From NCBI GenBank assembly GCA_035221665.1, contig CM069164.1:14012001-14076000 (forward strand): a DNA stretch of 64,000 nucleotides, in the 5' to 3' direction. Origin of the DNA: Okamejei kenojei (lineage: Eukaryota). Positions 1,893-63,749 of this stretch are shown here, in pieces; the stretch's first letter is position 1, and every line of letters starts with the position of its first letter. Below the pieces are notes generated by a model. The model was not told where the DNA came from. It saw only the letters and a program-made list of their open reading frames with translations, and did not search any database. Both the position numbers and the translations under genes were made by a program.

Positions 1893-1980
1893 CCATCTAC
1901 ACTAGTCCCACCTGCCTGCATTTGGCCCATATCCCACGAAAACATATCCGATCCATGTCATTGTTCAAACGTATTACAAT

Positions 1981-2160
1981 AGACACAAAATGCCGGAGTA
2001 ACTCAGCGGGACAGGCAGCATCTCTGGAGAGAAGGAATGGGCGGTGTTTCAGGCATCACCCGTTGCTTTTCTCCAGAGATACTGTCCTGTCCCACTGAGT
2101 TATTCTAGCATTTTGTGTCTACCTTTGGCATAATCCAGCATCTGCAGGTCCTTCCTGCAC
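1981..2160. mobile_element. Fold-back Penelope-derived unit
   Basis: AGACACAAAATGCCGGAGTAACTCAG... is inverted-complementary to ...CTGAGTTATTCTAGCATTTTGTGTCT. Confidence 0.75.
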
Positions 2161-7855: not shown

Positions 7856-7884
7856 ATGGATTTTCCAAGTGGATAGAAACTGCA

Positions 7885-8080
7885 TACAATTTTACCAAAG
7901 CCAATTGACCTACACACCTGTATGTCTTTGGAGTGTGGGAGGAAACCAGAGCACCTGGAGAGAACCCACGTGGTCGCAGGGAGAACGAACAAACTCCGCA
8001 CAGTAGCGTCCGTAGGTCGGGATCAAACCCGTGTCTCTGGCGCTGTAAGGCAGCGATTACCTCTGCACGACCGTGCCACT
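7885..8080 (-). mobile_element. HE1-like SINE, partial
   Basis: Reverse complement of the SINE head and core. Confidence 0.8.
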
Positions 8081-9239
8081 TTACAGGTGGCTTTCATTAG
8101 ATCTCTGAAGACAATGCAGATAACGGAAGGAACTGTAACAGTCAGTCTTCATCTCACCGAATAGGAGAAATTGGATGGGCTGAATGGCCTCTTCCTGTGT
8201 ATCTAGCAATGGGTAATCACTTGCAAGGATGATGGCCAAAAACATTCAATGCTCAATGACGATTATCCCAACCTCAAATAAAAACAGAGAATACAGGAGA
8301 TACTCAGCAGTTCGGGCAGCATCCGCGGGGAGAAATAATCGAGAGTTAATGTTTAAGGTTGTGTAGGAAGGAATTGCAGATGCTGGTTTAAACTGAAGAT
8401 AGACACAAAAAGCCGGAGTACACCAAAGATTGACACAAAACACTGGAGAAACCAAATTTTTGTCTACCTAAGGTTTAAGGTCGATCAGTTATCCCAGCCT
8501 CAATCAGCACATTTGAGAAAACAACTTCATTATAGATTCACACAATCGCCAATCTCATCGTAGCAACAAGAGTTCAGAACCAGTGATAGTCGGGCTATAA
8601 ATGCTGGCCTCGCCAACGACGGTCGCATCCCGAGGAAGCGGATAAATAAAAAAAAACATTAAAGTGAAAGCAATCTCGAGAAACATACATCTGGTACGAG
8701 AGAAGAAAATGGTTCTTTTGAAAACGATCACAGCAGTTGAATGATCACGCTATAGCTTCCATATAATCGCACTTACAAGCTCAATCCACAGGAGAAATAA
8801 TACTTTGTGAAGACAAATTAAACCAGTTTTATGTTGCTTTCACACTAATCCCCAGACAGAGTACTTTGTACAAAGCCAGATGAAGTACTCGTCCTAATAT
8901 ACTCTGGTTCTGAAGCACAAGTCTGATGTTTAGTTGCTAAGACACATTTGTTCAGGTCAGCCTAGGATGCAACAAAGAAAAGAGAATAACTGCCTGGATT
9001 GTTGTCTGCTTAGTTCAAGCAATGCCCTCCATTTCTACAGGTCATTTACACGCTAGATATTTTCTTATGGAGGCCATTCAGCCCATTGAGTCTATGCTAA
9101 CTCCCAGAGTAATCCCATCAGTCCCGTTCTCCCATTTATTTTCCCTGCTGCCTCACATGTTGATCAACTCCATTCTGATTCTCCCACCAGCCACTTACAT
9201 TAGGGATAATTTACGGCCATGAATTAAACCACCAACCAA

Positions 9240-9595: not shown

Positions 9596-10429
9596 GATGC
9601 GGGACTCTTCAATTTTACGATTCTTAATGTTTCCAAGTTCTTTATGGGTTCACCACTCCCTCAATCTGAAATTCACTCCAGCTTACAGTCAGACATCTCT
9701 GCGCTCCTCGAATTCTGACCTCTCATATCATCTGCCCCTCTCTCATTAACCGTGCCCAAGCTTCACACCCTGAGCTCCAGAACCACCTTCCAAAGCCAAC
9801 CCACCACGATGCTTGAACACAACAAATACTGCTTTGCCTGAATTCTAATCAGTTCTATCCAATATCTATGTTGACATCCAAATGCTGGAGGAAACTAGCG
9901 TGTCAGGCAGCATCTGTGGAGGGAAATGGACAGTTTGTCTTTAGTCAGAGGGTGGTGAATCTGTGGAATTCATTGCCACAGAAGGCTGTGGAGGGCAAGT
10001 CAATGGATATTTTTAAGGCAGAGATCGGGTGTCAGGGGTTATAGGGAGAAAGCAGAGAATGGGTTTTGTTGGAAAGGCTTGATGGCGGAGTAGATGACCG
10101 AATTGATGTCTCGAGTTGTGAGCTAAAGATTGGTGGGGAGGAGGATATAGTCAGAGCCCACCCCTCCCACTGCCCTTTACATACTGGCTATCTCCCCACT
10201 ACTATTTCAGTCCAGTTAAAAGGTCCTGACCCGAAACATCAACTGCCCATTTCCCTCCACAGATGCTGCCTGTCCCACGGACTTCCTCCAGCAGTTTTGT
10301 TTGTGGCTTCAGAAACAGGGTTGGTGACCTTATTTACACGGTGAAAGGAATTACGTTAGACAGCAACAGCAAATGGGCCGGCCATTTTACAATCACACCA
10401 GTGGCTTTCCCTTGGTGAAGTATTGTGGG

Positions 10430-10570: not shown

Positions 10571-10576
10571 CACCAA

Positions 10577-10662
10577 AGGTAGACACAAAATGCTGGAGTA
10601 ACTCAGGGAGCATCTCTGGAGAAAATGTATAGGTGACGTTTCAGGTCAAGATCCTTCTTCAG
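10577..10662 (-). mobile_element. Penelope-derived unit with intact hammerhead core residues
   Basis: Minus strand 10662-10635 reads CTGAAGA-AGGATCTTGACCT-GAAACGTC. Confidence 0.7.
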
Positions 10663-12459
10663 CCAAGCTGGCCATGGAAAAGTTCCAAAGGTTAACAGAC
10701 ATAGTCATGGCTCGATTGAATGGCACAGTAGACTTGATGGGCCGAATGGCCTATTCCTTATGGATTTCCTATAACTTATGAACTCATACAATCCTTTAAT
10801 AACAAAACAGGACTGCTGAGACCCTGACCAATAAATATTGAGATCTCTGCGTGTCCAGTTAAGAAATTTCAGCGACATAAATAAAGGATTTTAAAAAAAC
10901 CAACTATGCATCTTAAATGCTTCAGACATTAAGCACAATATCCTTCATACACCTTCATCAATAGCAAGTAGGTTTAACCCCCAACGCTGATATGAAATTG
11001 GTTACCACTTAACCACCACGAACAAGTCAGATATTAATAATCATTGTGTGCAGACAAAAAAAGTTATTAACTGCGGGTGCGATAGGTTAGCTATTCTATA
11101 TTAATAAGTCATCTGCTACAGAATAATTACAGGCAGTCCCTACTGTGGAAGCAATCAGACAGAGAGAACAAATAACTGACCCCAAAGCATGCCAGTGTCT
11201 GCACCATCCATCAGCTTCTAGAACGTTCTCACCACACCCACCAATTAGGTTGCCCTCCCCCAACCCACAAGGGCTCCTCTCTCCGACAGAGGGTCAAAGG
11301 CCATCGGTGTGTATGCGCGTGCTTCTGCGATCTCATTATCCCCTTGTCCATACATTTATCTGGCAGGATAAGAGGAAGGATGGTGACCGAGCTATCATCA
11401 AAGATTAATGGGAAGTATGAAAGAGAAATCAGAGTTAACATGCATTCTGCTTAGTACAAGTGACGGCACTGACAGCATTATTAATCAGCAGCCGAGCAGA
11501 TTTAAGCCTGTCCTCTCTGCTTCTGAGCATCTCTTTCCAATTTAAGTCTTTAGTTTCTCCTTACTATGGCAACTGGAGGTCAAAAAGCCAGTTACTAATT
11601 GGTTCTACAGGGTACTGAATGGTAATGAGAAGGGTCCAATTATAAAATCACTTGGCATTAGAAATGATTAGCATGTAAGGAAAGCTCGCAGGCCACGGCT
11701 GAGAAGCAGTGCAGATTGGCTGTTTATCACACTCTTACATTTTCCCCTGGTGTTAGCTATTAATAAAATTTATAGGTCAATGGCAGCATTAATTTTACAA
11801 GAAGGCAGCAGGTAACGCACCCAGTGCTCCCCAGACGACTCTACCTTGTTCAGTTTGCTGGTTAATATTATTTAAGTGCTCAACGGTCCTCTGGGATGGA
11901 TGAAGTGAATGGTTGCCCCAACAGAGGCACCTGACAGAAGAGGCGCCGTTGGTCTCTGCAGGGTCGGTGCCCAGTGTGTCTCCCTGGCCTCCGCTGTGGG
12001 TTTGAGTCCGCGGGCCACACAGCCTCAGTTGTGCTGCAGTGCGGACCGTCCTGCGCTGCTGGCTCGCAGCATGTTCCCTCAGCTCCCGTCTGCATCTTTA
12101 CCAAGGTAAAGCAGGGCTGCGGTACTTCTGGATCAGAAGGTGCCAGGGCGCAGTGCTCAGCTGTGGCAGGCTGGTCTCAGCTCAGAGCCAGGGGGGCTGT
12201 GGGGACCAGAGAGAGCAAAATAAGGCAACACAATGCTGGAGTCAGGCAGCATCTCTGGAGTCAAAGAATAGGTGAATACGTGACATTTCAGGTCAGAACC
12301 CTTCTTCCGACTGAAGATAGGCACAAATTGCTGGAGTAACTCTGTGAGTTAGGCACGCGCCAGCCCTTACACCGGCCTGACCGAGCGGGGACCTGGTGCA
12401 GTGGCATGGAGGTCAAAGCCAGGAGGCCAGGTCCAGCTGCACTGATTTATTCACTGTAT

Positions 12460-23029: not shown

Positions 23030-23590
23030 GCTGTTTCCACGCTGCAGACCCCCACTCCCCTGAGTTTGACTGCGCTGGGTCCTAGTGCCAGTCCCCCCAA
23101 CCCTGGTAACCTCTGTGGCTGTTCCCATGGGTCTTCCCCATTCCCCTCAAACCATGTGACCCCAGCTCTTCCCCACCCACACTACAGTCCTCATACCCCC
23201 CTACCCCTTGACCACCCACCACCCCCCCACCAGACATCGCCTCGGCCTCATTCCACTTACCTGACTTCCTCCGGACCCAACCCCCATCCCTGCCGTGTGT
23301 TCACCATCCTCCCTGACCTCCCCCTCTCAGATACCGAACGGGCTGTACACAGCATGGGCCTCAGCTTTGTCTCCTCCGTCCCCACCTCAATGAGTTCCAC
23401 GCCCGCCGCGATTTGGAGCTCTTCTTCCGTCGCCTCCGCCTCACACCGTTCTTCCAAGGGACGGAGTCCTTGCTCCCATTGATGATCCCTTTTCCAACGG
23501 GCCCCCTCCTCTTGGACACCCCCTCATGGCCATCTTCCAGCTTTAGACCATTTTATTTTAAACTGCCGGCGGGACATCAACTGCCTCAAC
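23030..23590 (+). pseudogene. Penelope-like element ORF fragment (N-terminal, upstream of RT) nested in the hAT
   Basis: RVFTILPDLPLSDTERAVHSMGLSFV, ELFFRRLRL and WTPP..LPALDHFILNCRRDI across frameshifts; resembles the PLE LS..E..VL.KGL.F.P motif. Confidence 0.7.
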
Positions 23591-23880: not shown

Positions 23881-24860
23881 CGGGAGGCACATGCGAAAGC
23901 CACAGAAGCTATTTTGGAAAGTTACAGCGCTATCACTGATGCCCTCAGTCATTTGTACTCTGGTGTTAATGTGAAGGGTGATACCAGGCTTCAAGCTAAC
24001 AATCTTTAGCAGAAAATGGAAGAAGTGGAATTTGTATTTATGCTGCATTTTTGGACCCGTCTGCTAGGTCATTTCCACAGGGTCAACAAAGCCATTCAGA
24101 AATCCAAACTGTTATTGAGCACGTGTGCAGGTTTGTACAGTTCACTTCGGGATTTTGTAAGCAAAATTAAAGATTTTGATGAGCTTGAGCCACAAGCAAA
24201 GGCCACCTTGCCAGATGTTAACTACAGAACTGTCTCAGGGAGACAAGGAATAAGGAAATGATGGAAGTGCACCTGGTCCTGATACTTTAGATAAACTCTC
24301 TTCAAGAGATAAGTTTAGGATAAAATCCTTTATTCCTATACGAGATGCACTTGAAACCAATTTAAAAAGAAGAGGTACTGTGTACAGTGAAGTTGCACAA
24401 CAGCTGTCCTTTCTTGCTAATCTGACCACATCTAAGCAAGAAACTCAGCAAGGTGTTGAACTGTTGATGGAAGCACACCCAGAAGATGCTGATCTGGAAC
24501 TTACTGATGAACTTTTGCACTTTCACTCGTACGTGAGACAAAGCCATAGGCACACAGAAGAGCACTCTCTGCCTCATACAGACCTTTATCAAATAATATA
24601 CAAGGAAACAATTCTGATGGCCTTCCCTAATGTGGAAGCAATCTTGCGGCTGTTTCTTAGCTTAATGGACACCAACTGCTCGGGAGAGAAGTCTTTTTCA
24701 CGACTCAAAAGAATTAAAAATGAATTAAGATCCACAATGTCTCAAGAGAGGTTGTCTACACTGAGCATTCTGTGCATTGAGAGTGACAAACTCACACAAA
24801 CAGATCTTGGTGAACTTCTGGATGATTTTGCTATGAAGAAGGCGAGAAAAAGCATTTTTG
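23881..24860 (+). pseudogene. hAT transposase C-terminal half (ZMYM1-like), disrupted
   Basis: EAHAKATEAILESY..EFVFMLHFW..; FPNVEAILRLFLSL..NCSGEKSFSRLKRIKNELRSTMSQERLSTLSILCIE (hAT dimerisation domain with the catalytic Glu motif); in-frame TAG at ~24007 and a frameshift at ~24258. Confidence 0.9.
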
Positions 24861-25659
24861 CTCTTAGTGTATTTGTAGTTTCTTTATTTCTTAATATTCC
24901 ACATTCAGTTCAAGAGACACTTATTGTCACGTGCACCAATTGGTGCAACTAAATTTGGGGTCAGCATCTGGCGTCGGAACGGGAGAACATTCTCAGCGGC
25001 TTGGACTTCCGAATCGGCCACTTCCTACCGGAGACTGCGGCTCCCGAAGTCCACAGGCTGAGCTGGGCGGAGATTCACGCTGGCGGCCCTCGGCAAAGGG
25101 ATGTTGAAATCAGCGCGGCCCGAGGCTGGGAGCTCCGCAAACCACAGCTCCATGTTGAAGCAGCAGGCCCAGCTCTCCAGAGCTTCACACGGCGATCCAG
25201 GTAAGGCATCGCCCGCTCCACGGTGAATCCAATATGTGTTTTAAAACCAACTGTTTAATGACGACATACAGTAGGATCTAAAAGTGTCACACTGTCACTG
25301 TCGGGTAGTCACGGTCCTCTAGTCGTGGGGGTGTGGGATTGGGAGGGGTGGGGAGGGGCCTCACAAGTGAAATAGCCTAGGGCCTCTCTTCATCTAATTC
25401 CAGCCCTGGCTAGTACAGTAATTCTGTAGATGTTGCTGCTACTGGGCTCCATTGGTGGAGGGAGCGAGTGTTCCAATCAAGAAGACTACTTTGCTCCAAA
25501 TAGTTTTGAGCTACCTGAGTGGCACGCAGCTACCCAAGGGACGACTTCAGACTCTTAGATCATTGGGATCTCTTGCAGGACATGTGGGACCTCCACGAGC
25601 AGGATAGGTTGTGCCTGATCTGGAGAGGCAGCAATATCTTTACAGGAAGGTTTGCTAGT

Positions 25660-33074: not shown

Positions 33075-33375
33075 GCGGCACGCTGGCGCAGCGTCAGCGA
33101 CCCGGCTTCGATCCTGACCTCGGCTGCTGTCTGTGTAGAGTTTGCACGTTCTCCCTGTGCCCACGTGGATTTCCTCCGGGTGCCCTGGGTCTCCTCCCAG
33201 GTCCCACGTTTCCTCCCGGGTTCGAAGGGTTAACGGGCCTTCCGTAGACTGGTATGTAGGGAGTGGATGCAAAAGTGGGAAAAGCATGGAACTACTATGA
33301 ACGGGTGATCGAGTGTCAGCTTGGACACAATGGGCTGAAGGGCCTGTTTCCAAGCTGTATCTCTAAACGAAACTA
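33075..33375 (+). mobile_element. HE1-like SINE
   Basis: Head with TTCGATCC, core and tail GAAGGGCCTGTTTCC..CTCTAAAC. Confidence 0.75.
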
Positions 33376-33914
33376 TGCTAAATTAGCCTTAGTTCAGCAG
33401 ACTTGGGCGCCATCCATAAATGAATTTGTTTTTAAGTACAAGTATGGCACACCACAAACTGAAACAGCATCCTGAGTAATACAGAAATGTGGAAGCTAAA
33501 CCGTCAGCTGTGGTTTCAACCAGCTGTCCTGGTTAACCTAAGTCTGACTTCAGATTTGTTTTAAATGCCTGCAGCCCCTCCTTTGTGGTGTTGGTGCGTT
33601 GCTCATCTCAGTATAGCTTGTGCGTCAGAACGAGCAAGGGAGCCGAGGTCCTGCCTCCAGAGGAAGATGGCTGCAATCGGCGGCGAGCCAGACTGAGTCG
33701 ACCTGTTTGTGAAACCATGGACCTGGGCTCCTGCAAGGCTCAGGGTCTCATTCCATCCACAGTGGTCTTCACACCCAACTAGGTTTCACACACCCCACCC
33801 ACGTCAGCCTCGATTCATCCAAATTTCCCCACACTTACCCTCTCCTCACTTAGATCCCACGTCTATCCCGCCTATCCTTGCTTAACTGCCCTTTTTCTGG
33901 TTCCAAATCACTAT

Positions 33915-34165
33915 CGAGGAAACACTTTTTCTCACAGAGAGTGGTGAGTTTGTGGAATTCTCTGTCTCAGAGGGCGGTGGAGGCAGGTTCTCTGGATGCT
34001 TTCAAGAGAGAGCTAGATAGGGCTCTTAAAGAAAGTGGAGTCAGGGGATCTGGGGAGAAGGCAGGAACGGGGCACTGATTGGGGATGATCAGCCATGATC
34101 ACATTGAATGGCGGTGCTGGCTCGAAGGGCCGAATGGCCTCCTCCTGCACCTATTGTCTATTGTC
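33915..34165 (+). mobile_element. CR1 (HER1-like) LINE 3' end
   Basis: RKHFFSQRVVSLWNSLSQRAVEAG followed by a CTATTGT repeat tail. Confidence 0.9.
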
Positions 34166-34220
34166 TATCCCCATTGACAATTTCCATTTTATTTTCCCCA
34201 ACTCTCCCTACTACAAGAGT

Positions 34221-34248
34221 CTGAAGAGGGATCTCGACCCGAAACGTC
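34221..34248 (+). ncRNA. Minimal type I hammerhead ribozyme motif within a Penelope-derived unit (34182-34305)
   Basis: CUGAAGA, GGG/CCC stem II, GAAA, palindromic ACGU in place of stem III, and a GUC cleavage triplet; stem I GAGU/ACUU can pair. Confidence 0.7.
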
Positions 34249-34651
34249 ACTTGTCCATTTTCACCAGAGATGCTGCCTGACCTGCTGAGTAATTCCAGCA
34301 TTTTGTGTCTATCCCCATTGACAATCATCTCCCCCTGCTTCTAAACCTCAACAAGCCCATGTTCTTTGATCTCTTTGTTCTTTCTCCACAGCCCCACCCC
34401 AATGCCTTCGCTTGGCCCTTTGATCCCATACAATCTCTGGCCAACGAGAGCCTTGTCTTACACAGGACTCACTGCCACTCACTCACTGCGTCGACACGTT
34501 AGTGGCCATTCCAACATCACCACCACAGTGTATTGGTGCACACCGACAATATTGTATCGCCGTCCGTCTCACTGTCACCGGGCAGATTCCACACTCTGCT
34601 GGTGATCATAAATAAAGGTGCAGGAAGGAGTGACTATGGTAGCGAGGGGCA

Positions 34652-34893
34652 NNNNNNNNNNNNNNNNNNNNNNNNNNNNNNNNNNNNNNNNNNNNNNNNN
34701 NNNNNNNNNNNNNNNNNNNNNNNNNNNNNNNNNNNNNNNNNNNNNNNNNNNNNNNNNNNNNNNNNNNNNNNNNNNNNNNNNNNNNNNNNNNNNNNNNNNN
34801 NNNNNNNNNNNNNNNNNNNNNNNNNNNNNNNNNNNNNNNNNNNNNNNNNNNNNNNNNNNNNNNNNNNNNNNNNNNNNNNNNNNNNNNNNNNNN
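34652..34893. other. Assembly gap
   Basis: Run of N. Confidence 1.
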
Positions 34894-34921
34894 TGGAGAG
34901 AGAGGGAGAGACGGAGAGGGA

Positions 34922-34954
<33 letters not shown>

Positions 34955-35002
34955 TGATGGAGAGGGAGATGGAGGGAGAGAGAGACGGAGAGGGAGATGG
35001 AG

Positions 35003-35220
35003 NNNNNNNNNNNNNNNNNNNNNNNNNNNNNNNNNNNNNNNNNNNNNNNNNNNNNNNNNNNNNNNNNNNNNNNNNNNNNNNNNNNNNNNNNNNNNNNNNN
35101 NNNNNNNNNNNNNNNNNNNNNNNNNNNNNNNNNNNNNNNNNNNNNNNNNNNNNNNNNNNNNNNNNNNNNNNNNNNNNNNNNNNNNNNNNNNNNNNNNNNN
35201 NNNNNNNNNNNNNNNNNNNN
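35003..35220. other. Assembly gap within a GA-rich repeat
   Basis: Run of N flanked by GA-rich sequence. Confidence 1.
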
Positions 35221-36764: not shown

Positions 36765-37390
36765 AGAGAGGAAGGGATAGAGGTGGAAGGGGTGGGAGAG
36801 GGAAATGAGAGGGGGCAAGAGGGAAGAGAGAGGGGGAAGAGGGAAATGAGAGGGGGCAAGAGGGAAGAGAGAGAGGGGAAGAGGGAAGAGAGAGGGGGAA
36901 GAGGGAAGAGAGAGGGGGAAGAGGGAAGAGAGAGGGGGAAGAGGGAAGAGAGAGGGGGAAAGAGGGAAGAGAGAGGGGAAGAGGGAAGAGAGGGGAAAGA
37001 GGGAAGAGAGGGGGAAAGAGAGAGAGAGGGGGAAGAGGGAAGAGAGGGGAAAGAGGGAAGAGAGAGGGGAAGAGAGAGAGGGGAAGAGGGAAGAGAGAGG
37101 GGAAGAGAGGGAAAGGAAGAGAGAGGGGGAAGAGGGAAGAGAGAGGGGGAAGAGGGAAGAGAGGGGGGAAAGAGGGAAGAGAGGGAAGAGAGAGGGAAGA
37201 AGAGGGGAAGAGAGGGGGAAGAGAAGAGGGGGAAGAGGGAAGAGAGAGGGGAAGAAAGGGAAAGAGAGAGGGGAAGAGGGAAGAGAGAGGGAAGAGGGAG
37301 AGAGGGAAGAGAGAAAGAAAGAGAGAGAGAGGAGGAGAGTGAAGAAGAGGGGGAGATATGTGAAGAAGAGGAGAGGGGGAGGGAGAACTG
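36765..37390. repeat. Polypurine minisatellite with a ~20-bp unit (GAGGGAAGAGAGAGGGGGAA)
   Basis: Four exact units at 36881-36960 and variant units around them; about 500 bp of purines only. Confidence 0.95.
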
Positions 37391-38649
37391 AGGTGAAGAG
37401 GGAATAGGACACTGTGCTGATTTCGTCAGCTCCGGGTGACACATTTTGACATCCTCCACCCCATGGGGACTGTGGATGTTCAGACACCAAGCATATTAAA
37501 GACAGAGAAGGGGGGGTCTGATGGCCATCCATTCTCTCCAGCGATGCTGCCTGACCTGCTGAGGTACTCCAGCACTTTGTGTTATGCTCAGGATTCCAGC
37601 GCCTGCTGTTCGTTGTGCATCCGATAGATTTTTAGACATTGAGGGAATACAGGGATATGGAGTTAGTAATGGAACAAGGCACTGAGGTAGATGAACAGCC
37701 GCCATATTGAATGCCTGCAGCAGAATAAGCAGGCACAGTGGTGAGCTGCCTCACCGTGCCAGAGGCCTGGGTTCGATCTTGACCTCCAGTGCTGTCTGTG
37801 TGATTTGCACGCTCTCCCTGTGATCAAGTGGGTTTCCTCCGGGTGCTCCGGTTTCCTCCCACGGTTCTGGACTCCCCCAACATGGGGAACATTTTTCCTG
37901 CATCCAGCTTGTCCTGTCCCTTAAGAATGTTATATGTTTCTATAAGATGCCCTCTCATCCTGCTAAATTCCAGTGAATATAAGCCCAGTCGATCAATTTT
38001 TTTGGATCGATGGTTGGTGCGCTCTGTAAACCAAAGGGCCTGTTTCCATGCTGTATCTTTCAATCAATTAATAATAATAATAACAAATTAGCCTGGTTGG
38101 GTAGGATTTGGCCATTTGGATATTTCCCCAGTTTGCATTAAGTTGGTTTCTTTAGCCACACTGCCCCCTAATGTTCGACGTCGTGCTTGCGGTTCTGTGC
38201 CACATTGGCCTTTGGTTTTCTTTGTTTGTTTATATGTTTATTAATTATCTGCCTCTTGCTTTGTTTATTGGAATTAAATCAATTACTAAAATCCAGGCCA
38301 ATCCTGTGTGTGTGGGGGGGGGGGGGGGGGGGCAGGGTGGTTGTGAATAGAAAGAATGTGGAGATTTGTAAAGTTGTAAGCAGGCCACCAGAATAGGACA
38401 ACAGGCCTGGTGTGTGATGAGTGAACATGTTTAGACAGCAACTGTCACACCCTAGATTGCCAGGGAGGCGAGTAGAGGCAGAGAGTGCAAATAGATCGGA
38501 GTGTGTAGGGGTGGGACTGTGGGTGGTCTGTTATTTCTGTGGGTAAGCAAATAGCAATTCCCTCTCCCCCTTTGACTCTGCGATCATCTGCTCCAGAGTT
38601 CTCGCAGCAAACATGCTCCAGAGAATGCAACTCACACGAAGGCAAAGGA

Positions 38650-38845
38650 TACACACCAAATGCTGGAGTAACTCAGTAAATTCAAACTGGGTCTGGAAGG
38701 GTCTCGACCCTGAACGTTGCCCATCCCTTCTCTCCAGAGATGCTGCCCGTCCCGCTGAGTTACTCCAGCGTTTACCGAGTTCCTCCAGCATTTTATGTCC
38801 ATCTTTTGGGTTAAACCAGCATCGGCAGTTCCTTCCTTCGCACGA
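38650..38845. mobile_element. Rearranged Penelope-derived unit
   Basis: GCTGGAGTAACTCAG, then CTGGAAGGGTCTCGACCCTGAACGTT (degenerate hammerhead) and CTGAGTTACTCCAGC. Confidence 0.65.
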
Positions 38846-39721: not shown

Positions 39722-39853
39722 NNNNNNNNNNNNNNNNNNNNNNNNNNNNNNNNNNNNNNNNNNNNNNNNNNNNNNNNNNNNNNNNNNNNNNNNNNNNNNN
39801 NNNNNNNNNNNNNNNNNNNNNNNNNNNNNNNNNNNNNNNNNNNNNNNNNNNNN
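39722..39853. other. Assembly gap
   Basis: Run of N. Confidence 1.
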
Positions 39854-41668: not shown

Positions 41669-41916
41669 ACCTCTTCGACTCTCTCTGCTAGGGAGAATCA
41701 GCTTTTTGCCAAACGTTTGGCAACATGCACCATACTCAAAACGTTAAACACTTTCCCGCAATGCCACTTCGAGGGGAGGAACATCCTGGAGATGGCTGGC
41801 TGCTGAATCAACAAAATTGAAAGTCAGACAAAAACACCAAGTGCTGGAGTAACTCAGCGGGCCAGGCAGCATCTCTGGAGAACATGGATAGGTTGAAGTA
41901 TGAAGAAGGGTCTCGA

Positions 41917-42370
41917 TGCCTCTACTTCCCGAGAAGATTACGGAGATTCGGGACTTCGAGATTCCCTTCAACTTCTACAGGTGCACAGTAGAGAGAACAT
42001 TGACTGGTCGATTCATGGCCTGGCTCGGCAACGTGAACGCCCAGGAGAGGAAAAGACTGCAAAACGTTGAGAACGCTGCCCAGTCCATCGCCGGCTCTGA
42101 CCTCCCCACCATCGAAGGGATTTATCGGAGTTGCTGCCTCAAAAAGGCAGCCAGCATCATCAGAGACCCACACCATCCTGGCCGCACACTCATTTCACCC
42201 CTGCCATCGGGAAGAAGGTACAGGTACAGGAGCGTGTGCGTGTGTGTGGTACATTCACTTTTTTTCTCTCTCGTTTATCATATTGTTTACAGTGAACCAT
42301 GTTTAAATATTCTGTTGTGCTGCAGCAAGTAACAATGTCATTGTTCTATCTGGGACACATGACAATAAAA
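41917..42370 (+). mobile_element. Rex1/Babar 3' fragment inside a Penelope-derived unit
   Basis: NFYRCTVERTLTG..AWLGN..ERKRLQ..IIRDPHHPG..LPSGRRY; tail ACATGACAATAAA. Confidence 0.88.
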
Positions 42371-44558: not shown

Positions 44559-44730
44559 GTGTACGAAGGAACTGCAGATGCTGGTTTAAATTAAAGGTAG
44601 ACACAAAACGCTGGCGTAACTCAGCAGGACAGGCAGCTTCTCTGGAGAGAAGGAATGGGAGACGTTTCGGGTCGAGACCCTTCTCTCCGCCTGTCCCTCT
44701 GAGTTACTCCAGCGTTTTGTGTCTACCTTC
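44559..44730. mobile_element. Fold-back Penelope-derived unit
   Basis: AAGGTAGACACAAAACGCTGG.GTAACTCAG is inverted to CTGAGTTACTCCAGCGTTTTGTGTCTACCTT; the junction lies next to GACGTTTCGGGTCGAGACCCTTCT. Confidence 0.75.
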
Positions 44731-45019: not shown

Positions 45020-45192
45020 AGCAAAACACAAACTCTGCAGAAACTCAACGGCTCAGGCAGCATCTTGAGATGCAAAGTGACAGATGCCGTTTCAGGTCGA
45101 GACGGATTCCCTCCTGTCCATTCCCTCCACAGATGCTGCCTGACCCGCTGAGTTCCTCCAGCAGGTTGTTTCATGCTGAAGATTCCAGCCTC
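45020..45192. mobile_element. Older fold-back Penelope-derived unit
   Basis: AACTCAACGGCTCAGGCAGCATCT is inverted to AGATGCTGCCTGACCCGCTGAGTT; centre CGTTTCAGGTCGAGACG. Confidence 0.65.
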
Positions 45193-51265: not shown

Positions 51266-51593
51266 TCAAATTAACTGGCTTGAAAGGGGAGTTCTTAACC
51301 ACATTCACATTTTAAGAACAAAGTGAATTACTGAAATTGTTTTTTAACGTTCAAGGATTTCTTCAACTTTTGATGATTTTTTGGTAAGAGAAGGTGCAGA
51401 CCTTCAATCCGGTTCCATTCAATTAATAGCAGAATATTTCAACAGTTACCAAAAAAGCCCCATTCCAATCCAGTAGAGGTGTGAATGGCGATTCAGTTCT
51501 GTTTAGTTTATTGTCACGTGCCCGGAGGTGCAGTGAAAAGCGTTTGTTGTATGCTAACCAGTCAGCAGAAAGGCTATACTTGATTACAATCGA

Positions 51594-51781
51594 AGGTAGA
51601 CAAAATTCCTGGAGAAACACAGCGGGTGTGGTAGCATCTATGGAGCGAAGGAAATGGGCAACATTTCGGGCCAAAACGTTGCCTATTTCCTTCACTCCAT
51701 AGATGCTGCCACACCCACTGAGTTTCTCCAGCAATTTTGTCTACCTTCGATTTCCCAGCATCCGCAGTTCCTTCTTGAACA
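51594..51781. mobile_element. Fold-back Penelope-derived unit with a 13-bp TSD
   Basis: Hairpin 51588-51752 centred on TTTCGGGCCAAAA; TGATTACA(A/T)TCGA at 51581-51593 and 51782-51794. Confidence 0.8.
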
Positions 51782-53499
51782 TGATTACATTCGATCCATT
51801 TACAGTGTGTAGATACATGAGACGGGAACCACGTTTAGTGCAAGGTAAAGCCAGCAAAGTCCGATCAAGGATAGTCCGAGAGTCATCAAAGAGGTAGATA
51901 GTAGTTCAGGATTGCTCCCGGATTGGGATAGGGTGATTCAGTTGCCTGATAACAGCAGCGGATGCCCACAAATTAATTCAGAGAGCGATCTGTCGCCAAC
52001 ACGCTTGTTGAGACATAGGCGCCGCACCACCTTCTCGACACCGCCCGGGGTAATTCAGCAACTCAAACACGGCCGCTGTGGTTTGAGTGAAAACTATTAC
52101 CAGAGCATGAAATATAGAACCAAAAATTATCACCTTAGACTCCATCACAGATTGGAATGAATTAGACAGCCACAACTGCCCGAATAAGCAAGCAAGTTGA
52201 ATCAAAAAGCTTGCAGGAGCCATTGGTAACTAGGTCAAGCTGTTTGAGAAATAATGAACATGAGTTTAATAACTCATTGATAGCCATCTCTTATTCTTTA
52301 ATTGATTGTTTCCATGGCGATTAAACATAAATATACCATTCAATAATCTCACTTAAAATTGTCTTTTCACATATACCTTTAGGAGGTGTGAGATTTGCAC
52401 TGAAGGCATGTTGGACAGCTTACCGCAGTGGTCTTCTGTACTGCCACAGGCTGTAGATTGGTCAATCGTTTTGCATGAAAACATGCAACTTGATGCTTGC
52501 AATTCTTCCATGCATTCCCGCTGGAGGGCCACGTCTTGACCCTAGGCTTACTGATCTTGCGTTACATCAGACTCTTAAATCACACTGTCCTTGGACTTTG
52601 AAGTGTGTCACAAAATGAAATATAGCTGCTCCAAGCATGGACTTTGAAGCATGGAGAAGACTTGGGTCAGGTCTCACGCTGTAGGAACACCACCTCTGGG
52701 CCAAGAGAACGCCTCTGCTTTTGTTCACTTTAGGAGTACGTTCATGTTGCTCTGTCCACTGTCACCTTGGTTGAGCCAACACAACATCAGCGAGCTCGCT
52801 ATCAACAAGACCAGTCTCTTACTTGGACTCCTCTGGGAGAATTCCAGGAGAGGCAAAGGAGCCTGCAATTCAACAAGTACAGCAAGTGAGCAGGTCAGGA
52901 GTTGGTGGACTCAACTGGAAACCAAACTCAGTTGACCTCCACCTCCTCCATCCTCTGTCAGTAGGGAGGATACCCCGAGATCATCTTGCATGTCCCCTCC
53001 GAGTTGGCCCAGCGTGTCACTTAGTTCTCAAAGCATCTAGCGACAGCCAATTAATGCTGCCAGATTTCCACCTCAGAACAGAGGGGTGTAGGCCTGGCCT
53101 GGCTGCTACTTAGAGGCTTGGACTATGGTTCTGTCGGAGCAGTATTTGGGAGGTGGCGTCACTGGTTGGTGTGTTTGATCATTAACTAGGATTGTCGGCA
53201 CCTTGTCGTGTGGGCTGGGGTGTCCTGGGACAGAGGTCGACCCACTGGGTTGTCAGCAACAGGCCCCAAGGCGTCGGGGGGGGGGGGTTGGTCAGTCTTT
53301 GATGAACAAAACTAGACGGAGACCGGCCCGGGCAGACATTGATATTGGTGCGTCAGACACTTGTGTGAGCATCTACTTGGGTCTTTTTCCACCCAGAGGA
53401 AATGGTGGTTGCAGGTTCCCTCTCAACGTGTACGCATTATCTAGCTGAGCATCTGACTTGCCAAGGCGTAGGAAACTATGGTCCAAGAGCCGGTCAATG

Positions 53500-54255
53500 G
53501 CCCGTTTAAAGTTTGTTTTTGGGGAAACTTAACTTTTTTTATGTGGGGGAGGGGGGCAGGTTAAGGGGGAAACTAACTCCCAGTCACTTCCTGGCGGGGA
53601 CGCGACTGTTTCTCCGAGTCGCGTCCTCGCCCTCCACCTCGCGGCCTACCTCCTGGATCCGAGCGGCCTTTCCTGCCGGGGACCGGGAACCGGACCAGAG
53701 CTACAACAGCGGCGGTGGCGCTGGAGTCATCACGGAGCGAGCGATACCTACCTGAGTCGCCGTTGGATCTCCGCAGCGTTGGGCCGCTGCTCCAACACCA
53801 TGGAGGTCTGGTTTAGAGAGCTCCCAACGCGGGCAGTGCTGACTGTCATCCTGGGGCCCTTTGCCGAGGGCCTCCAGCGATGCATCTCCACCCGGCGCGC
53901 CCTGCGGACTTTGGGAGCCGCGGACTCCGGTAGGAGGGGGCCGACTCGGGGTCCAGGCCGCTGAGGACGTCCTCCAGCCCTGACGTCGGACTTCCATCAC
54001 CCCGGGGAGCGGGCCTGAACATCGGGCCGCCCGTAGCAGCGACTGCAGGGGGCTCGGGGAGGCCCCGACCACGGGGGAACAGTGGGGAACATCAGGGGAA
54101 GAGACTGACTTTGGTGCCTTCCCTCACAGTGGGAAATGTTGATCCTGCTGTGGGGGGATGTTTTATGTTGAATCCTATCTACTCCATGTGTTCTTTATAT
54201 TTACTGTATGGCGATTTAATTTCGCTGTGCCAATTGGCACGTGACAAATAAATGC
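53500..54255 (+). mobile_element. GC-rich non-autonomous retroelement with a Rex1-like tail
   Basis: CpG-rich body; tail GCCTTCCCTCACAGTGGG..TGTGCCAATTGGCACGTGACAAATAAA. Confidence 0.55.
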
Positions 54256-55972
54256 ATCTCATCTTATCAATGGTCGGAATGGACAAGGTGGGTCTGTTCT
54301 ATACGACTGTTTGGGGCCATCAGCAGATGATTGTTGGGTGTACTGGTGTGACAAGTCCACAGAGGCTACAGTCCAATTTCCCAATGTTTAATTTAGATTA
54401 GTTTTGTTTATTATTGCCCCATGCACTGAGCTACAATAAAAAGCTTTTTGCTGCGTGCTATCCAGTCAGTGGAAAGACTATACGCGATTAGAATGAACCT
54501 GTCCACAGTGTTCAGATACAGGACAAAGGGAATAACATTTAGCACAAGATAAACTCCAGTAGAGTCAGATTAAAGATGGTCTGAAGGTCCCCAGCAAGGT
54601 AGATAGTTGATCAGGACTGCTCTCTAGTTGGGTCAAGGATGGTTCAGTCGCCTGGAACCTGCCCCAGAATTTGGAGGTGTGCATTTTCACACTTCTGTAC
54701 CTCTTGCCTGACGAGAGAGCAGAGAAGAGGGAGTGGCTGGGGCGAGAGTGGCCCTTGGTTATGTTGGCGGCCCTGTCGGGGCAAGGTGAATGGTGGATGG
54801 GGTCAATGAACACCATTCCACCCAGAAATGATCACTGGGCTCGAATCGATTATTGAGCGGCTTGTGAAACAAGTGCTCATCCAGTTGAGGCTGGACCAAT
54901 GCAGGAGTGTTGGGACACGACACATATCCTCAAGCAACCCATCCAATGGACCGTGCCTGTGCTATCTGAACTTCCCTTCCATTGTCCTCCCTCCCTCCCC
55001 CCCCCCTTCAAATCCCCCCTTCCTCCCTACCAACACTCCCAGATGGGAGCTCCCATTGAAACCCAGCTGTCCGCAGCAAGGGACTGTCGATTGCACAAAT
55101 ACCAGGCACCTGACCAAACGTCCCCGGCTTGTAGGTGAATAATGACCCAATTAGCAAACATTTCGATAAAACCCTTAAATCCAACATGCAGGACAGCAGC
55201 CTCCACAGGACTTCACTGAAACTCCAACTGAATGCAACTGTTTATAACAAGGTCACATTTGTCACCATAATTACTGATGTCATCTTCTCGCCCTCTGAGG
55301 ATGTGCACACGGGGGCTGGGTGTACCGTACAGGAAACATTGAGGTAATGAGTAAAATATTTCACTTCCTGCTCATTAAGACATCTTGTCAAGCCATCAAG
55401 CATTTCATTTTATTTCATAAAATCTCATTCCCTTTGTTTAATTTTGCTTCCCCTAATTGGAACATTGCACCATTTTATTATTGAGAATCTCTGAACATCC
55501 ATCCACCCCACATTATCTGATGGTTTTCCTTTTGAAAGTTGCCAGGGGCCGAGGTATGTCCACAGAGTTAGTTCCATCACTAATGGCTCCATTCCTTCGA
55601 GCGCTGTGTCAGCTTGTGCGTGGATTTTGCTGGTGTGGTGGTCTGTTACTGGACTCTAGTGAACGCTCATGAAGACGGATATCAGCCGAGACAATGCACT
55701 CCACCCCGAAAACACGCCAACGAGCAGAGCGCAAGGCAGAGGAACGTCCCCAGGGAAGGAGACGCCAAAGTGGCTTCTTACTCAAGAGCGTTTAATTGTC
55801 ACATGTACTGACAGCAGAGCAATGACAATCTTACTCACAGCAACGTAACCGGCCTGTAAACATGATACACAGATAATACACATATACAAATTAATATGCA
55901 CAGTACTAGTGCAAGACAAAACAAAATCCTTAGTGCAATCTAAGACGTCGTAGAAGTTCCAGTTGAGGTTAG

Positions 55973-56375
55973 TCATCTTCATCATCGGTGGTCACTCGCA
56001 ACGAGTATGACTGACCTCTCCTCTCCATTGGGTCGTCTACTTGTGGGTCTGCAGATGCCGATCCACACACGTTGGTGCAAGGTGGGCAGTGGGGACTGGC
56101 GGTGGTCGGTAGTCGTCGAGCCCCCTTCTCCCTCTCCTTACGGAGCTGTCGCTTTGTCTCTGCGACACGGCGTAGTTCCAGTTCGTGACGTGCAGCTCCT
56201 TCCTGCAGGGATTTCCTCCAGGAGCGCCTGTCCAGTGCAATGTGCTCCCAGTTGCTCGATGTGATGTGAAATTTCTTCAGACTGTTCTTTATGTTGTCCC
56301 TGAAGCGTGTATCTTGGCCTGCCGGCCGCTCGCCGGCCTTCCTTCAATTGAGAGTATCGCGCACTGTTCAAGAGC
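55973..56375 (-). mobile_element. RTE-clade LINE 3' end
   Basis: Minus strand reads YSQLKEGRRAAGRP, a degraded C-terminal segment, then CTCGTTGCGAGTGACCACCGATGATGAAGATGA. Confidence 0.7.
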
Positions 56376-56384
56376 CTAATGGTT

Positions 56385-56690
56385 TATTTTAGCTTAGCTT
56401 AGAGATGCAGCACAGAAACAGGCCTGTCGGCCCATCGTGTCCTCACCAAACAGCATCCCCGTATACGAGCACTGTACCCACACACTAGGGACATTTACAT
56501 ATTTTACCGAAGCCAATTAACCTACAAACCTGAACGTCTTTGGAGTGTGGGAGGAAACCGGGGCACCCAGAGTAAACCCAGGTGGTCCACGGGGAGAGCT
56601 TACAGACTCCGTACAGACAGCACTCGTAGTCAGAATCAAAGCCAGGCCTTTGGCCCTGGAAGGCAGCAACTCTACCACTGCACCACCCTC
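56385..56690 (-). mobile_element. HE1-like SINE
   Basis: Reverse-complement match from tail to head. Confidence 0.85.
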
Positions 56691-57495
56691 AGCTGGTGGA
56701 AAGAAGCTATTCTTGAACCCGCTGGTCAACGTTGTCAGGCTCAGGCACCTTCTCCCTGACGGTAGGGGTGAAACAAGAGGGTGGCCAGGGAGGTGTGAGC
56801 ACTGAGGCAGCCACTACTCCATATCCCTTCAATGCGAGGAGATCAGTAGCTGCGATGGAATTAGCTTGGGGTTTAACGGTCAGCTTTCCTCTCTGGTCCA
56901 GAACCAGCTGCGACCTCACTGAGTGGTGCAACAGGGTTGAAAGGCCTCCCCTCTATCCACGTCACTAAAAGTCTATTAAAATACATGCACTGACAATTTT
57001 GCGGCTGTGTCCTGGTTCCTTGTCAGTGAATTCCCGTTGCAAATCTCTTTCTCTCCCTTCAGGGAGCACAGCCCTGAAACATGATATTGTGTCTATAATA
57101 CATCTCCACCTCCTCGCTAAAGCTGCTGAGTCCTTAGCTTGTTACCAGTATTACAAACATCGGATGTCACGTCACATTAGCAGCTTCCACCCTGACAACT
57201 CGGAGAGAAATGTCAGCGCGTCTCAGCACCTTTGGATGTACCGGCAGAGACGCCGTCTGTTGCTGGTGCATCAAATACCATCACCGCCTGCAGCCCGCCC
57301 TGCTGCTTTCAAGCTGGTAAATAATGTATCAAAGCCAGTGTAGCCTTCAACACTCACTTGTCAGCCCGCCCCCAGGAGGGCCAGGTTGAGATGCCGAATT
57401 AAAATAGACATCTCCTCACACCATCGGAGAAGGAGAAATCTTTCAGAAGCAAATCCAAACTCGTCGCAATTCACTGACAGGAAAAACACTTGCAA

Positions 57496-57527
<32 letters not shown>

Positions 57528-58214
57528 AGAGAAAGCCAGATTTAACTGCTTTGGGCAACAAACTAATTTACAGCAGGAATTGAATATTTGCTCTCTCCCC
57601 CCCCCCCCCTTAGGAAATTGCAACGGGAAACGTAATTATTTTTTTCTATGCAGGCAGGGTGAATTAGAGGCACACGATGGAGCCCACACCAGGAGGTTGC
57701 TGCTTCCAACATCTGCTGCTTCCCTGTACAAGGCAGATTTTCCAATGCCCCAAGATCATCAGATAACTGACCACCTGGGATTGAGGTGACCACTCAGGTA
57801 AATCAATTTTGAAAGATCAGGGAACTGCAAATTAGGGCACAGCAGATGGGGCGAGGCCTGGGGTAGGTCACCCCATGACCATATTAAATGTCAGGACAGG
57901 TTTGAGGGGCCGAGTGGCCTACTCTCGATGGTCAGTGGCTCCGCGGAAGGAAGGAAGGAAGAGTCTACAGGTTGTTAGATTCAGCGATCATACATGAGCA
58001 CTATCCTACACAATCAGGACAATTTACACATTTTTAACCAAAGCCAATTAATCTACAAACCTGTACGTCTTTAGAGCGTGGGAGGAAACCCAGAAAAAAC
58101 CCAGGTCACAGAGAGAACATAGAAACTCCGTACAGACAGCACCCATAGTCAGGATCACACCCGGGTGTATGGGAGGCTTTATTTTTTTATTATTATTTAT
58201 TTTTTAATATAAAG

Positions 58215-58260
58215 AGCTACCTAAAATTGGAGAATTCAACGTTCATACTGTCGGGTTGTT
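58215..58260 (-). pseudogene. Extreme C-terminal fragment of a Penelope-like ORF
   Basis: Minus strand reads QPDSMNVEFSNFR*, resembling the L.P.G.N motif that ends PLE GIY-YIG domains. Confidence 0.5.
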
Positions 58261-59887
58261 TTGGAACATTTCAAAATGTTGCGACCACAGTGGGCTGCAG
58301 GATTCCTGTGGCTTTTTTTCCTGGAAACAATGCCGATGGAAGAGATGGAGAAATTAGTTTAACTGCGCTCTGTGTCAGAGCCGAAACAATGTGCTCTCTG
58401 TCCAAAAGCAGCAACTTGGGCAATGCCAGAATCCTCAGAACTGTCACGGCCCCAAGTTTCAATAGAATGAAGATGGTGGGTTTACAAGCCATCCCTTTAG
58501 ATCCCTGGAACACACAAGGTAAACACAAGGTTTCACTGCCCACTGTTTCGGGGCCAGATTCATTTCCCGTCGATTGTAACCACACTAAGCCAATTCAGAC
58601 CCCTATCGCCTTTCACCCGTTCACAAGCTCAGTTACAGTACCTTGGCAACGCAGCCTTCACCCTGATTCATGCCAGCTGCTTCAACTCAAAGGGACTGGA
58701 GATCTAAAGGGACTCAGTTTGTGTTTGGAGAGTAGTGCAGGAATTATCGGGCCCCATTTACAATTCCATCGTCCCTTAGGCAGCGTCTCCCCACCAACTC
58801 CTTGGATCCCTTGAACCTTTAGCATTGGGGCAGAGCCTGAAGCCAGGGTCACAGTCCACCCTTCCTCCCTCCACCCTCATCTAGCTCAGTTGTGGGGTCA
58901 GTCTGCACCTTAGAAATTACCGCCACGCCCGCACACCGTGCCCAGAGGGAATATATGGGGAAAGAATGGGCCTGGACTGACTAATTAGACAATCCTTCCA
59001 AAGTGATAAAGGCTGATAGGCCTTGTTCTCTGACACCAGGTAAATGAATATTGACCTGGCAAAGAGTGCCGGAGGTAAGAGCTAAACAGTTAACACAACA
59101 CCTGTTACTGACAATGGCTTGAAGACAACCGATCCCAACTATGGGTGGTGTCTGTATGGAGTTTGCACGTTCTTCCAGTGACCGCGTGGGGTTTTTTTCC
59201 CCTCAGGTGCTCCGGTTTCCTCCCACACTCCAAAAAGACGTACAGGTTCGTAGGTTAATTGGCTTCAGTAAAAATGGTAAATTATGCGTAGTGTGCAGGA
59301 TAGTGCACAGCTATCGCTGGTCAGCGCGCTGAAGCGCCCGTTTCCACACTGTATCTCTGATTTAAACTAAACCAAACCATGATATTAAGATAGAATGGTA
59401 ATATAAAGTGGATTCGTTTGTGTAACTTCATAAATAACCATTCAAAGACAATTTTTGTGTAACATGCAAAGACTCTCGAGATTTAAATGAGTTCAATTTG
59501 ACTCTTGGCTGCACTAAGTCAATTAATAAGTGCTTAAGAAATTCTTTGGCACTAATTAACTCCAAGGCCTACAAACGATTTCACAGAGGCACTCAAGAGC
59601 ACTCGCGATTCATTGTGAATGATTCGAGGCCATTAGGACTACTGAACTACCATATCCTGCGGTGAAGGCCTCAGATTTACACAACGGCCTCTCCGCGCTA
59701 ATGACATCCAATATCAGGTTGGCAGCCACCAGGCATTCCAGCCAAAAAATGCATGCACTTCTCAACCGCCTGTTACAATCACAGGACATCTTGCAGTGCA
59801 GTGCAGTGCAGCAGGTGAAGCATGTTTAAAGGGTGCCCTCACTGATGCAACGCAGAAAATTCTTTATGCCATTTCAATCACAGGACG

Positions 59888-60172
59888 ACACAATGGCACA
59901 GCAGTAGAGTTGCTGCCTTACAGCGTCAGAGACCCAGGTTCGATTCTGACGGCGGTGCTGTCCGTATGGAGTTTGCACGTTCTCCCCATGACCACGCAGG
60001 TTTTCTCAGGGTGTTCCTTTTGCTTTCCGCCAAAGACGTGCAGATTTGTAGATTAATTGGCTTTGGGGAAATTGTAAGTTGTCCCTAGTGTGTAGGATAG
60101 TGTTAATGTTCTGGGTGATCGCTGGTCAGTACAGACTCGGTGGGCCGAAGGGCCTGTTACCGTACTATATAT
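59888..60172 (+). mobile_element. HE1-like SINE
   Basis: Head, B-box GGTTCGATTC, core and tail. Confidence 0.85.
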
Positions 60173-60449
60173 TTCTAGAGTCTAACTTCCAAAGACAGCA
60201 CAGATTATCAGGATCAAACCTGGATCTCTTTAGAGTCGAGAAGAATGAGAGGTGATGTCATTGAAGTATACAGTTCCTGCCAGGCTTGGTCGAGTGGATG
60301 CAGGGACGGTGAGTATCCTGGCTGGATAGACCACATCCAGGGCTCAGTGTCCCCAAAAACCAAAGGTCACCAGACATTTAGGATATTTTACTCTTCTAAT
60401 AACTATTTGCAGACAATGGTTACTGGAGACAAGAAGAAATTTCTTCACA

Positions 60450-61197
60450 AAGATGTGACGCCATCAGCAATGGCAGCCTCGCCAACGGTCTGTCTGCCTT
60501 TTCGTCTTTGTTATTTTTAGTGTGTTTTAAAAAGTTTGTGTTAATGTTCTCTGGTTTGTTTTATGTGGGGGGTTGTGGAGGGGGGGTCGTGGGAAAACCT
60601 TTTTTCCAATTTCTTACCTTGCCGGAGATGTGATTGTTTTCCGGGTCATATCTCCGGTCGCTCTGCAGCCTAGCATCATGTAGCTGGCGGCCTTGCTCGA
60701 GACCCACTTTGAACCCCACCAAAGGGCCGTGGACTTACCATCGGAGCCTGCGATCCCTCGCCTGGGATCGACGCTTCAACCGCCACATACGAATTTCAAC
60801 ATCGTGGAGATCGCAGTCTCGGGTACAGACTGATGTCAGGAAGCTCCAAAGTCGCAGGAGGTTCAACCAGCCACAACCCGCGGGAGCCTAGATCCCCCCC
60901 AAAGCGCGAGCTTGATCGCCCCAACGCGGAGGGCCCGACCGCCGGCTACGGGAGCCAAGATCATCCCGTCAACAGAAGGCTCGAGGCCCCCCGACCGCAG
61001 GGGAACAAAGAGGGGAAGAAGATTGAATGTATTTTTCACCTTCCATCAGTGAGGAATGTGGAGGAGTCACTGTGGGGGGTGTTTATGTTAAAATGTATTT
61101 TATGTGTTTTGTTGCTTTTTAAAATGGTATGACTGTATGCAAATCAAATTGCTCGTATGTTGCAAAACATACTTGGCTAATAAAGTATGATTATGAT
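60450..61197 (+). mobile_element. GC-rich non-autonomous retroelement
   Basis: 5' part similar to the 53500 element; CpG-rich body; hairpin GTATGTTGCAAAACATAC, AATAAA and a TATGAT repeat tail. Confidence 0.55.
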
Positions 61198-63690: not shown

Positions 63691-63749
63691 AAATCTCACT
63701 GCTTCTCCCTCTCGCCCTTTATAAAACATCTCAAATCCCATCACTCTTT

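Follow-up and report, generated by a model that had tools for sequence, protein, structure and literature searches.

At 34162-34325 of the window, the whole 64,000-nucleotide (64-kb) stretch of DNA that was analysed, a short repeat copy carrying a minimal hammerhead motif lies between the two copies of a direct repeat, at the 3' end of a 5'-truncated LINE (Table 1). Read directly from the window, 34221-34248 is CTGAAGA GGGATCTCGACCC GAAA CG TC. These are the core letters given in the original prediction; stem I (GAGU/ACUU, 4 bp) and the GGG/CCC pairing of stem II can likewise both form as it proposed.

Table 1. Features of the hammerhead locus and of related copies in the window (strand as +, -, or. 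for arrangements involving both orientations or given without strand)
Feature	Position	Strand	Basis or remark
Minimal type I hammerhead motif	34217..34252	+	descriptor, folding, published consensus comparison
Stem I	34217-34220/34249-34252	+	GAGU/ACUU, 4 bp
CUGAAGA	34221-34227	+	
Stem II region	34228-34240	+	
GAAA	34241-34244	+	
Palindrome ACGU, in place of helix III	34244-34247	+	also in family majority
Predicted cut	after C34248	+	
Left 20-bp direct repeat, likely target-site duplication	34162..34181	+	exact match to right copy
Right direct repeat	34306..34325	+	first 8 nt are the element's own 3' end (microhomology)
5'-truncated LINE 3' end with (TTGTCTA)n tail	33915..34168	+	last 7 nt are the first 7 nt of the left repeat
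Pyrimidine-rich 5' part of insert, rare in family	34182..34216	+	82% C/T
65-nt conserved body to family short 3' end (TGTCTATC)	34249..34313	+	without optional tail in the 34221 copy
Further copy whose core letters are complete; stem I absent, stem II weak	10572..10664	-	pattern and descriptor scan
Head-to-head inverted pair	1979..2147	.	plus arm with tail
Partial direct tandem	12216..12355	-	3' piece joined directly to next copy's hammerhead
Inverted arm, copy and partial direct tandem with tail	38643..38830	.	
Head-to-head inverted pair	44559..44729	.	minus arm with full tail of ~37 nt (44559-44595)
Head-to-head inverted pair	45026..45192	.	
Near-perfect palindrome, 165 bp	51588..51752	.	82-nt arms, 90%, 1-nt loop
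Frameshifted, stop-containing stretch	23260..23590	+	translations; adjoins no hammerhead copy
14-codon piece ending in stop	58217..58258	-	not followed by a hammerhead copy

The hammerhead motif and its insertion site

The pattern CTGAAGA-N8-20-GAAACGTC matches the window twice, at 34221-34248 and, on the minus strand, at 10635-10662, where a relative with an intact core had been announced, and at least two matches were found in 0 of 100 shuffles. A full minimal-hammerhead descriptor, comprising the core, a complementary pair before UH, a stem II of at least 3 bp and a stem I of at least 2 bp, was passed in the window by 34221-34248 alone and by no site in 200 second-order simulated windows. 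In Rfam, nothing in the window reached the gathering score, and around the site (33500-34700) no hammerhead family appeared even at E values up to 10; Rfam models presumably do not cover motifs that lack helix III.

The earlier description of this hammerhead as intact holds for its core letters but not for its stem II, in which, in the register of the family majority, the extra base is G and an A·C mismatch appears. The unpaired non-G base (H) between A9 and G10.1 is A in the majority, whereas the 34221 copy has G and folds better without an extra base: its stem II energy is +1.7 kcal/mol with that base (majority register) and -3.1 in a shifted 3-bp register, against -4.8 for the majority stem. 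Its 4-bp stem I depends on T34251, a position at which C accounts for 78-84% of the depth when contigs from four public DNA runs, one run for each of the organisms A, B, C and D, are compared at 85% likeness. In contexts of 132-301 nt the hammerhead pairs have a predicted pair probability of at most 0.01, the predicted fold is not the hammerhead fold, and the unit is no more stable than shuffles (z = -0.76). A constrained dimer (stem II and the ACGU duplex, without stem I) came to -9.3 kcal/mol against a dimer minimum of -21.6, figures that are uninformative on activity. We predict that the 34221 copy is a poor ribozyme where it is now located.

The 20-bp direct repeat is exact, as had been reported (20 of 20 positions). 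At the left repeat, the opening 7 nt belong to the (TTGTCTA)n tail of the LINE; at the right repeat, the opening 8 nt belong to the short 3' end of the family. Because these overlaps can be assigned either way, the insert measures 124-132 bp and the duplication 12-20 bp; the 124 bp first proposed for the insert thus lie within the range without being its only value. The simplest single event would be an insertion into the LINE tail by an element whose end matched the target, with a 20-bp duplication, and a 12-13 bp duplication beside a chance match seems less likely. No empty site was seen among the 15 joints listed from the four runs, to which 771 further ones belong. Joints between LINE tail and family turn up in every one of the four runs; given how common the two repeats are, chance would be enough to produce them, and the LINE tail was not counted as a targeted insertion site. 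The right flank proved not to be a degenerate tail.

In organism B a contig of 132 nt runs through LINE tail, repeat and hammerhead (34141-34271); it shows 7 differences and 1 gap, and the insertion therefore predates the split of organisms A and B. The divergence across the hammerhead locus (8/132) is of the same order as that of the organism B flank contig (24/305). The two repeat copies are identical, whereas the unit stands 11% from the window majority, so that part of this distance is probably a subfamily difference, and some apparent defects of the 34221 copy may be subfamily traits rather than decay. The pyrimidine-rich 5' part of the insert is weakly alike to copies at 10213 and 46074, and is likely a remnant of the terminal repeat upstream of the ribozyme.

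The LINE 3' end, which we take to be of CR1/L2 type, has nine other copies in the window, two of them at 91-94% identity with the same tail, and a longer copy of it has protein relatives that include a sturgeon record at 48%. The window is repeat-rich eukaryotic DNA, and its repeat types may point to a shark or ray as host. LINE 3' ends show two tail types, (TTGTCTA)n and (TTTCTATG)n, and several copies begin matching at one place, 33915-33919. The single-copy left flank (33640-33911) is present in organisms A-D at about 88-99% identity, with the organism D flank contig diverging after 33851; organisms B and C give no cover over the right flank at 34354-34489. A further short interspersed repeat, abundant and presumably SINE-like, occupies 33089-33199 and about 20 other places, its copies being 70-85% identical, and to the right of the hammerhead unit lie three assembly gaps (592 N) and long GA-rich tandem tracts (34652-35220, 36797-37354 and 39722-39853).

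Abundance, decay and ends of the repeat family

An iterated profile search for relatives of the unit gave 33 matches in the window and none in 5 simulated windows. Grouped by hand, these fall into 24 loci that cover about 4.3% of the window; around 20 relatives had been foreseen, and all 11 of the places named for them lie inside family matches. Summed depth relative to the single-copy flank reached 47,000-180,000x over the hammerhead and 230,000-420,000x over the body in the four runs, and only 75-575x over 34184-34217. Summed depths of this kind are not copy numbers and give an order of magnitude only, ~10^5, which nevertheless bears out the very high copy number originally suggested. The difference in depth places the core of the family at 34218-34313 and marks the 5' part of the unit as rare. 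No family match above the profile threshold falls in the last 12 kb (52000-64000), against about one per 1.6 kb before, and blastn gave one weak family match at 63071. Degenerate exact patterns of the family had no match in viral, metagenome or prokaryote contig collections.

Fifteen copies span the motif, and their majority reads CUGAAGA-A-GGGU-CUCG-ACCC-GAAACGUC, with all 11 core positions, the extra base A, G10.1-C11.1 and the palindrome ACGU. Stem II has 4 bp in this majority (GGGU/ACCC round CUCG) and 3 bp in the 34221 copy; it is 88% paired across the 15 copies and is closed by G10.1-C11.1, G-C being commonest. The 2 pairs of helix I are 63% paired. Stem I looks short across the family, with 2 bp in the commonest AGT/ACC form and a range of 2-4 bp. 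Covariation in stem II, whose absence was one of the refuting outcomes put forward with the original prediction, did not appear in these 15 decayed copies, which speaks against the hammerhead reading, though in a sample of low power: none of 4 pairs showed two-sided change, and the score was reached by 74 of 500 shuffles.

Core letters are kept in 160/189 cases against 1560/1870 for the downstream body, and CpG positions in 127/182 against 1875/2221 elsewhere, with G12, which lies within a CpG, kept in 12/21. Since the core is kept no better than the body and CpG positions fare worst, the hammerhead cores decay neutrally. Sixteen copies reach CUGA; two of these have all core letters and one has both stems. 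Upstream of CUGA, 3 of the 16 are pyrimidine-rich, 2 resemble the 34221 copy, and most share nothing further upstream.

The 3' ends form two groups. The larger (18/33) lies at model positions 85-104, the short end, which is 65 nt past the cut site, and 10/33 matches stop at the modelled tail end (two of them poorly matched); 4/33 end between the groups and 1/33 is shorter. The optional tail of 37-40 nt (about 37) occurs in 8 of 11 hand-picked copies. Loose ends accumulate behind 34308 and 34313 in all four runs, and those behind 34313 read into the tail. At the other side, 14/33 matches reach CUGA or beyond, their starts falling within 8 positions of the model start, and 4/33 begin at the cut site; the 14 matches still contain what precedes the cleavage site, so the RNA from which they were copied was uncut. 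Of the 33 5' ends, six fall close to the cut, at model positions 30-38, a number too small to claim cleaved templates.

Head-to-head inversions occur at 6 of the 24 loci and partial direct tandems at 3, and no tandem pair of intact cores exists within the 64-kb window. Inversion centres are not fixed but vary between loci, and solo arms make up most of the copies. The palindrome at 51588-51752 belongs to a second subfamily and is centred on a hairpin intrinsic to its stem II region; it looks like a fold-back of cDNA inside the ribozyme motif. At 9873-10309 a LINE piece separates two family arms that stand head to head, and this is likely a palindromic copy that was interrupted when the LINE inserted later.

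Probable kinship with Penelope-like elements

Two stretches had been proposed as Penelope open reading frame pieces, at 23030-23590 and 58215-58260. Both have broken frames, and word search, phmmer, Atlas and Pfam returned no relative for them, which is weak evidence given such short, broken queries. The stretch 23260-23590 may resemble the N-terminal part, and 58217-58258 the C-terminus, of the open reading frame of a Penelope-like element (PLE). Pfam found no RT or GIY-YIG domain in 450 of the 461 listed frames of at least 55 aa (the remaining 11, beyond 62606, were left out), and no RT/GIY-YIG remnant adjoins a family copy in the window. Since the protein searches gave nothing, PLE parentage has to be argued from the motif and from three structural marks. 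Elsewhere in the window, 24254-24949 holds a 232-aa frame with a hAT transposase C-terminal dimerisation domain (PF05699, E 1.5e-06), a DNA transposon remnant, and LINE-like ORF pieces lie at 7190-7726, which matches PF09004 ALKBH8_N (E 1.4e-13), and at 41904-42329.

Minimal hammerheads in PLE terminal repeats, mostly as solo copies, have been described since 2014 (PMC4209133), with a >80% consensus for metazoan PLEs of CUGANGAH / G..C / GAAAN-palindrome-NUH (Cervera and De la Pena, PMC4209133). The family majority fits this consensus, in line with the original assignment to the minimal type I hammerheads of PLEs. The likeness extends to the absence of helix III, the palindromic ACGU, the extra base between A9 and G10.1 in the majority, the G10.1-C11.1 pair, and the occurrence mostly of solo copies, a few being paired on opposite strands. 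The family majority also has CUGAAGAA...CGUC in common with the PLE rows of fugu and Xenopus, and some published rows have no extra base (PMC4209133). The family differs in its short stem II (4 bp, or 3 bp in the 34221 copy), in a stem I of 2-4 bp, and in an apparent copy number of ~10^5 against 4,000-9,000 descriptor matches in coelacanth and Xenopus, figures that were measured differently (PMC4209133). The section of the minimal-hammerhead alignment on which we draw has no cartilaginous fish rows, and shark, Callorhinchus and Leucoraja are absent from the supplement PDF (PMC4209133).

In PAc, the Poseidon element of the green anole (Frangieh et al. 2024, PMC11167929), reverse transcription can start at two internal places downstream of the hammerhead, and the optional tail of 30-40 bp is the stretch between them; insertion proceeds without need for cleavage, the ribozyme cuts only with protein present, and priming in vitro involves no homology to the target. 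The family shares with PAc a hammerhead shortly upstream of the 3' end, an optional tail and an uncut RNA template. Its cut-to-end distances are ~65 and ~102 nt, against 85-92 nt for the PAc site given; the 8-nt target match of the 34221 copy contrasts with homology-free priming, and no ORF could be linked to the family (PMC11167929).

Published PLE insertions are marked by a 30-40 bp tail that may be absent, by truncated copies inverted at the 5' end and by partial tandems (PMC3846280; PMC8557442). As in the Penelope elements of Adineta vaga and other animals, our family combines head-to-head inverted repeats with palindromic junctions, partial tandems, an optional tail and heavy 5' truncation; it differs in duplications of 12-20 bp at one locus, against 8-10 bp there, and in copies of only about 100-135 bp (both comparisons from the portions of PMC3846280 and PMC8557442 considered).

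The literature search, which also drew on parts of PMC6155905, PMC7936874 and PMC6431247 and did not reach most subscription papers and repeat databases, returned no published description of the family. A 13-nt family motif occurred, among full texts, in one unrelated paper only, and term searches of the supplements of PMC11167929 and PMC8557442 gave no match.

Origin of the copies

We consider it the best explanation, at a probability of roughly 0.6, that the family arose when uncut RNA of a PLE terminal repeat was copied into cDNA that was truncated or folded back. Such copies would be inactive from the moment they inserted, and ribozyme action, if any, would take place only in the parent RNA, as a dimer joined through ACGU. 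The 34221 copy is then a fixed, decaying member of a very high-copy repeat with a minimal hammerhead motif, and likely a PLE 3'-terminal piece. The motif, the family, its two kinds of 3' end, the inversions, the decay and the presence of the locus in a second organism are shown by the sequences, whereas PLE parentage, the steps of priming and fold-back, and inactivity are inferred. This reading is favoured because the majority fits the published minimal-hammerhead consensus, because inversions, partial tandems and tail are as in PLEs, and because the 5' ends are those expected from uncut templates of the anole kind. We counted against it that no RT/GIY-YIG domain lies beside the copies, that stem II shows no two-sided change, that stem I is short, and that the 8-nt match is unlike anole priming. 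Mobilisation by a PLE, as first proposed, is thus likely from the motif together with inversions, partial tandems and tail, although no PLE protein was confirmed in the searches.

Mechanistically, the PLE protein would nick target DNA and begin reverse transcription at one of two internal sites, ~65 or ~102 nt downstream of the hammerhead cut, giving copies without or with the 37-nt tail. Synthesis would usually end early, near the hammerhead, where the cDNA would sometimes fold back or re-prime to yield head-to-head palindromes. At the locus of the 34221 copy the short-end start may have been used in the older LINE tail, with 8 nt matching the element end and a 20-bp duplication as the outcome. 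The ribozyme itself would act in the RNA of the parent element, two motifs pairing via ACGU, perhaps with the help of protein, and not in solo copies; single minimal hammerheads do not cleave in vitro and dimers cleave weakly in the published assays on which we draw (PMC4209133).

Solo copies of PLE minimal hammerheads are already known as a kind, and it is the scale and geometry of the family that could matter, the 34221 copy alone being unlikely to. An abundant family with two 3' ends and variable fold-back points could allow starts and stops of reverse transcription to be mapped from one genome; 5' ends at the cut across the family would tell whether cleaved RNA serves as template, and priming by microhomology could be tested in the same way.

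The 5' ends lie so close to the ribozyme that they would also fit a dedicated short RNA. A possible, though on balance unlikely, account on these lines is a non-autonomous mini-element, headed by the hammerhead and some 100-135 nt long, that has source loci of its own and spreads SINE-like in trans on Penelope machinery to ~10^5 copies and ~4% of the window, its palindromes recording fold-back inside the ribozyme. It would explain why 14/33 matches begin within 8 positions of the model start, why most CUGA-reaching copies share nothing further upstream, and why summed depth is several hundred times lower immediately before the core; in a rotifer, PLE terminal repeats are enough for mobilisation in trans (PMC3846280; PMC8557442). 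However, the model start was set at the core, so the 5' pile-up is partly built in, upstream sequence may merely differ between subfamilies, and the 34221 copy and two others keep a pyrimidine-rich upstream stretch. Loss of one palindrome arm would give the same picture, and an inverted tail remnant does abut the copy at 1864, with a score not above background. Were it real, few ribozyme-derived repeat families would be larger than that of this mini-element, and its copies would lend themselves to study of how Penelope transposition is primed and how the second strand is made, both of which are unsolved.

The copies were originally called retrozyme-like, which would make them monomers left by a classical non-LTR retrozyme, whose tandem units cleave as dimers, circularise and reinsert. 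We find this improbable. The partial tandem at 12216-12355 does join a 3' end to the next hammerhead; tandem retrozymes and PLEs are reported from the one chondrichthyan genome of a 2026 preprint, which derives retrozymes from PLE terminal repeats in the part we used (Li et al., 10.64898/2026.07.22.740005); large target duplications are also reported for retrozymes (PMC7229834). The family is, like them, short, non-coding, equipped with a type I hammerhead and tied to PLE terminal repeats (PMC7229834; 10.64898/2026.07.22.740005). Retrozymes are defined, however, by tandem units each with a hammerhead, and the 64 kb hold no tandem of two intact cores, the three direct tandems are partial, and 14/33 templates were uncut. 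Among the 15 joints listed (771 further; contigs break in repeats) none is head to tail. In the sections of PMC7229834 considered, moreover, retrozyme hammerheads are canonical with helix III and a loop 1-loop 2 contact, minimal ones belong with PLEs, and the unit length is 150-450 bp, whereas the family has a minimal motif without helix III, no Rfam match and a shorter unit; head-to-head inversions and tails are PLE traits. The PLE-fragment reading, the short trans-mobilised element and the retrozyme nonetheless share the connection to PLEs.

A repeat outside the PLEs, for instance a palindromic miniature DNA transposon with an incidental hammerhead match, would account for inverted repeats at a quarter of loci and for the PLE protein and Rfam hammerhead searches without a match, but is highly improbable, since the 11 core positions, extra base, G10.1-C11.1 and palindrome are all family majority, none of the 200 simulated windows passes the descriptor, and inversion centres that vary by locus, in copies that are mostly solo arms, are unlike fixed terminal inverted repeats. 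Least probable of all is that the 34221 copy works as a ribozyme, perhaps one recruited by the host: no other copy combines all core letters with a 3-bp stem II and a 4-bp stem I, the latter lengthened by the minority letter T34251, and its locus is common to organism B, but without helix III it would need a partner, which in published assays brings weak cleavage at best (PMC4209133, in part), its hammerhead pairs are hardly predicted to form in context, random decay would be expected to leave one copy in 16 that passes, and the locus has diverged in organism B to the same order as its flank.
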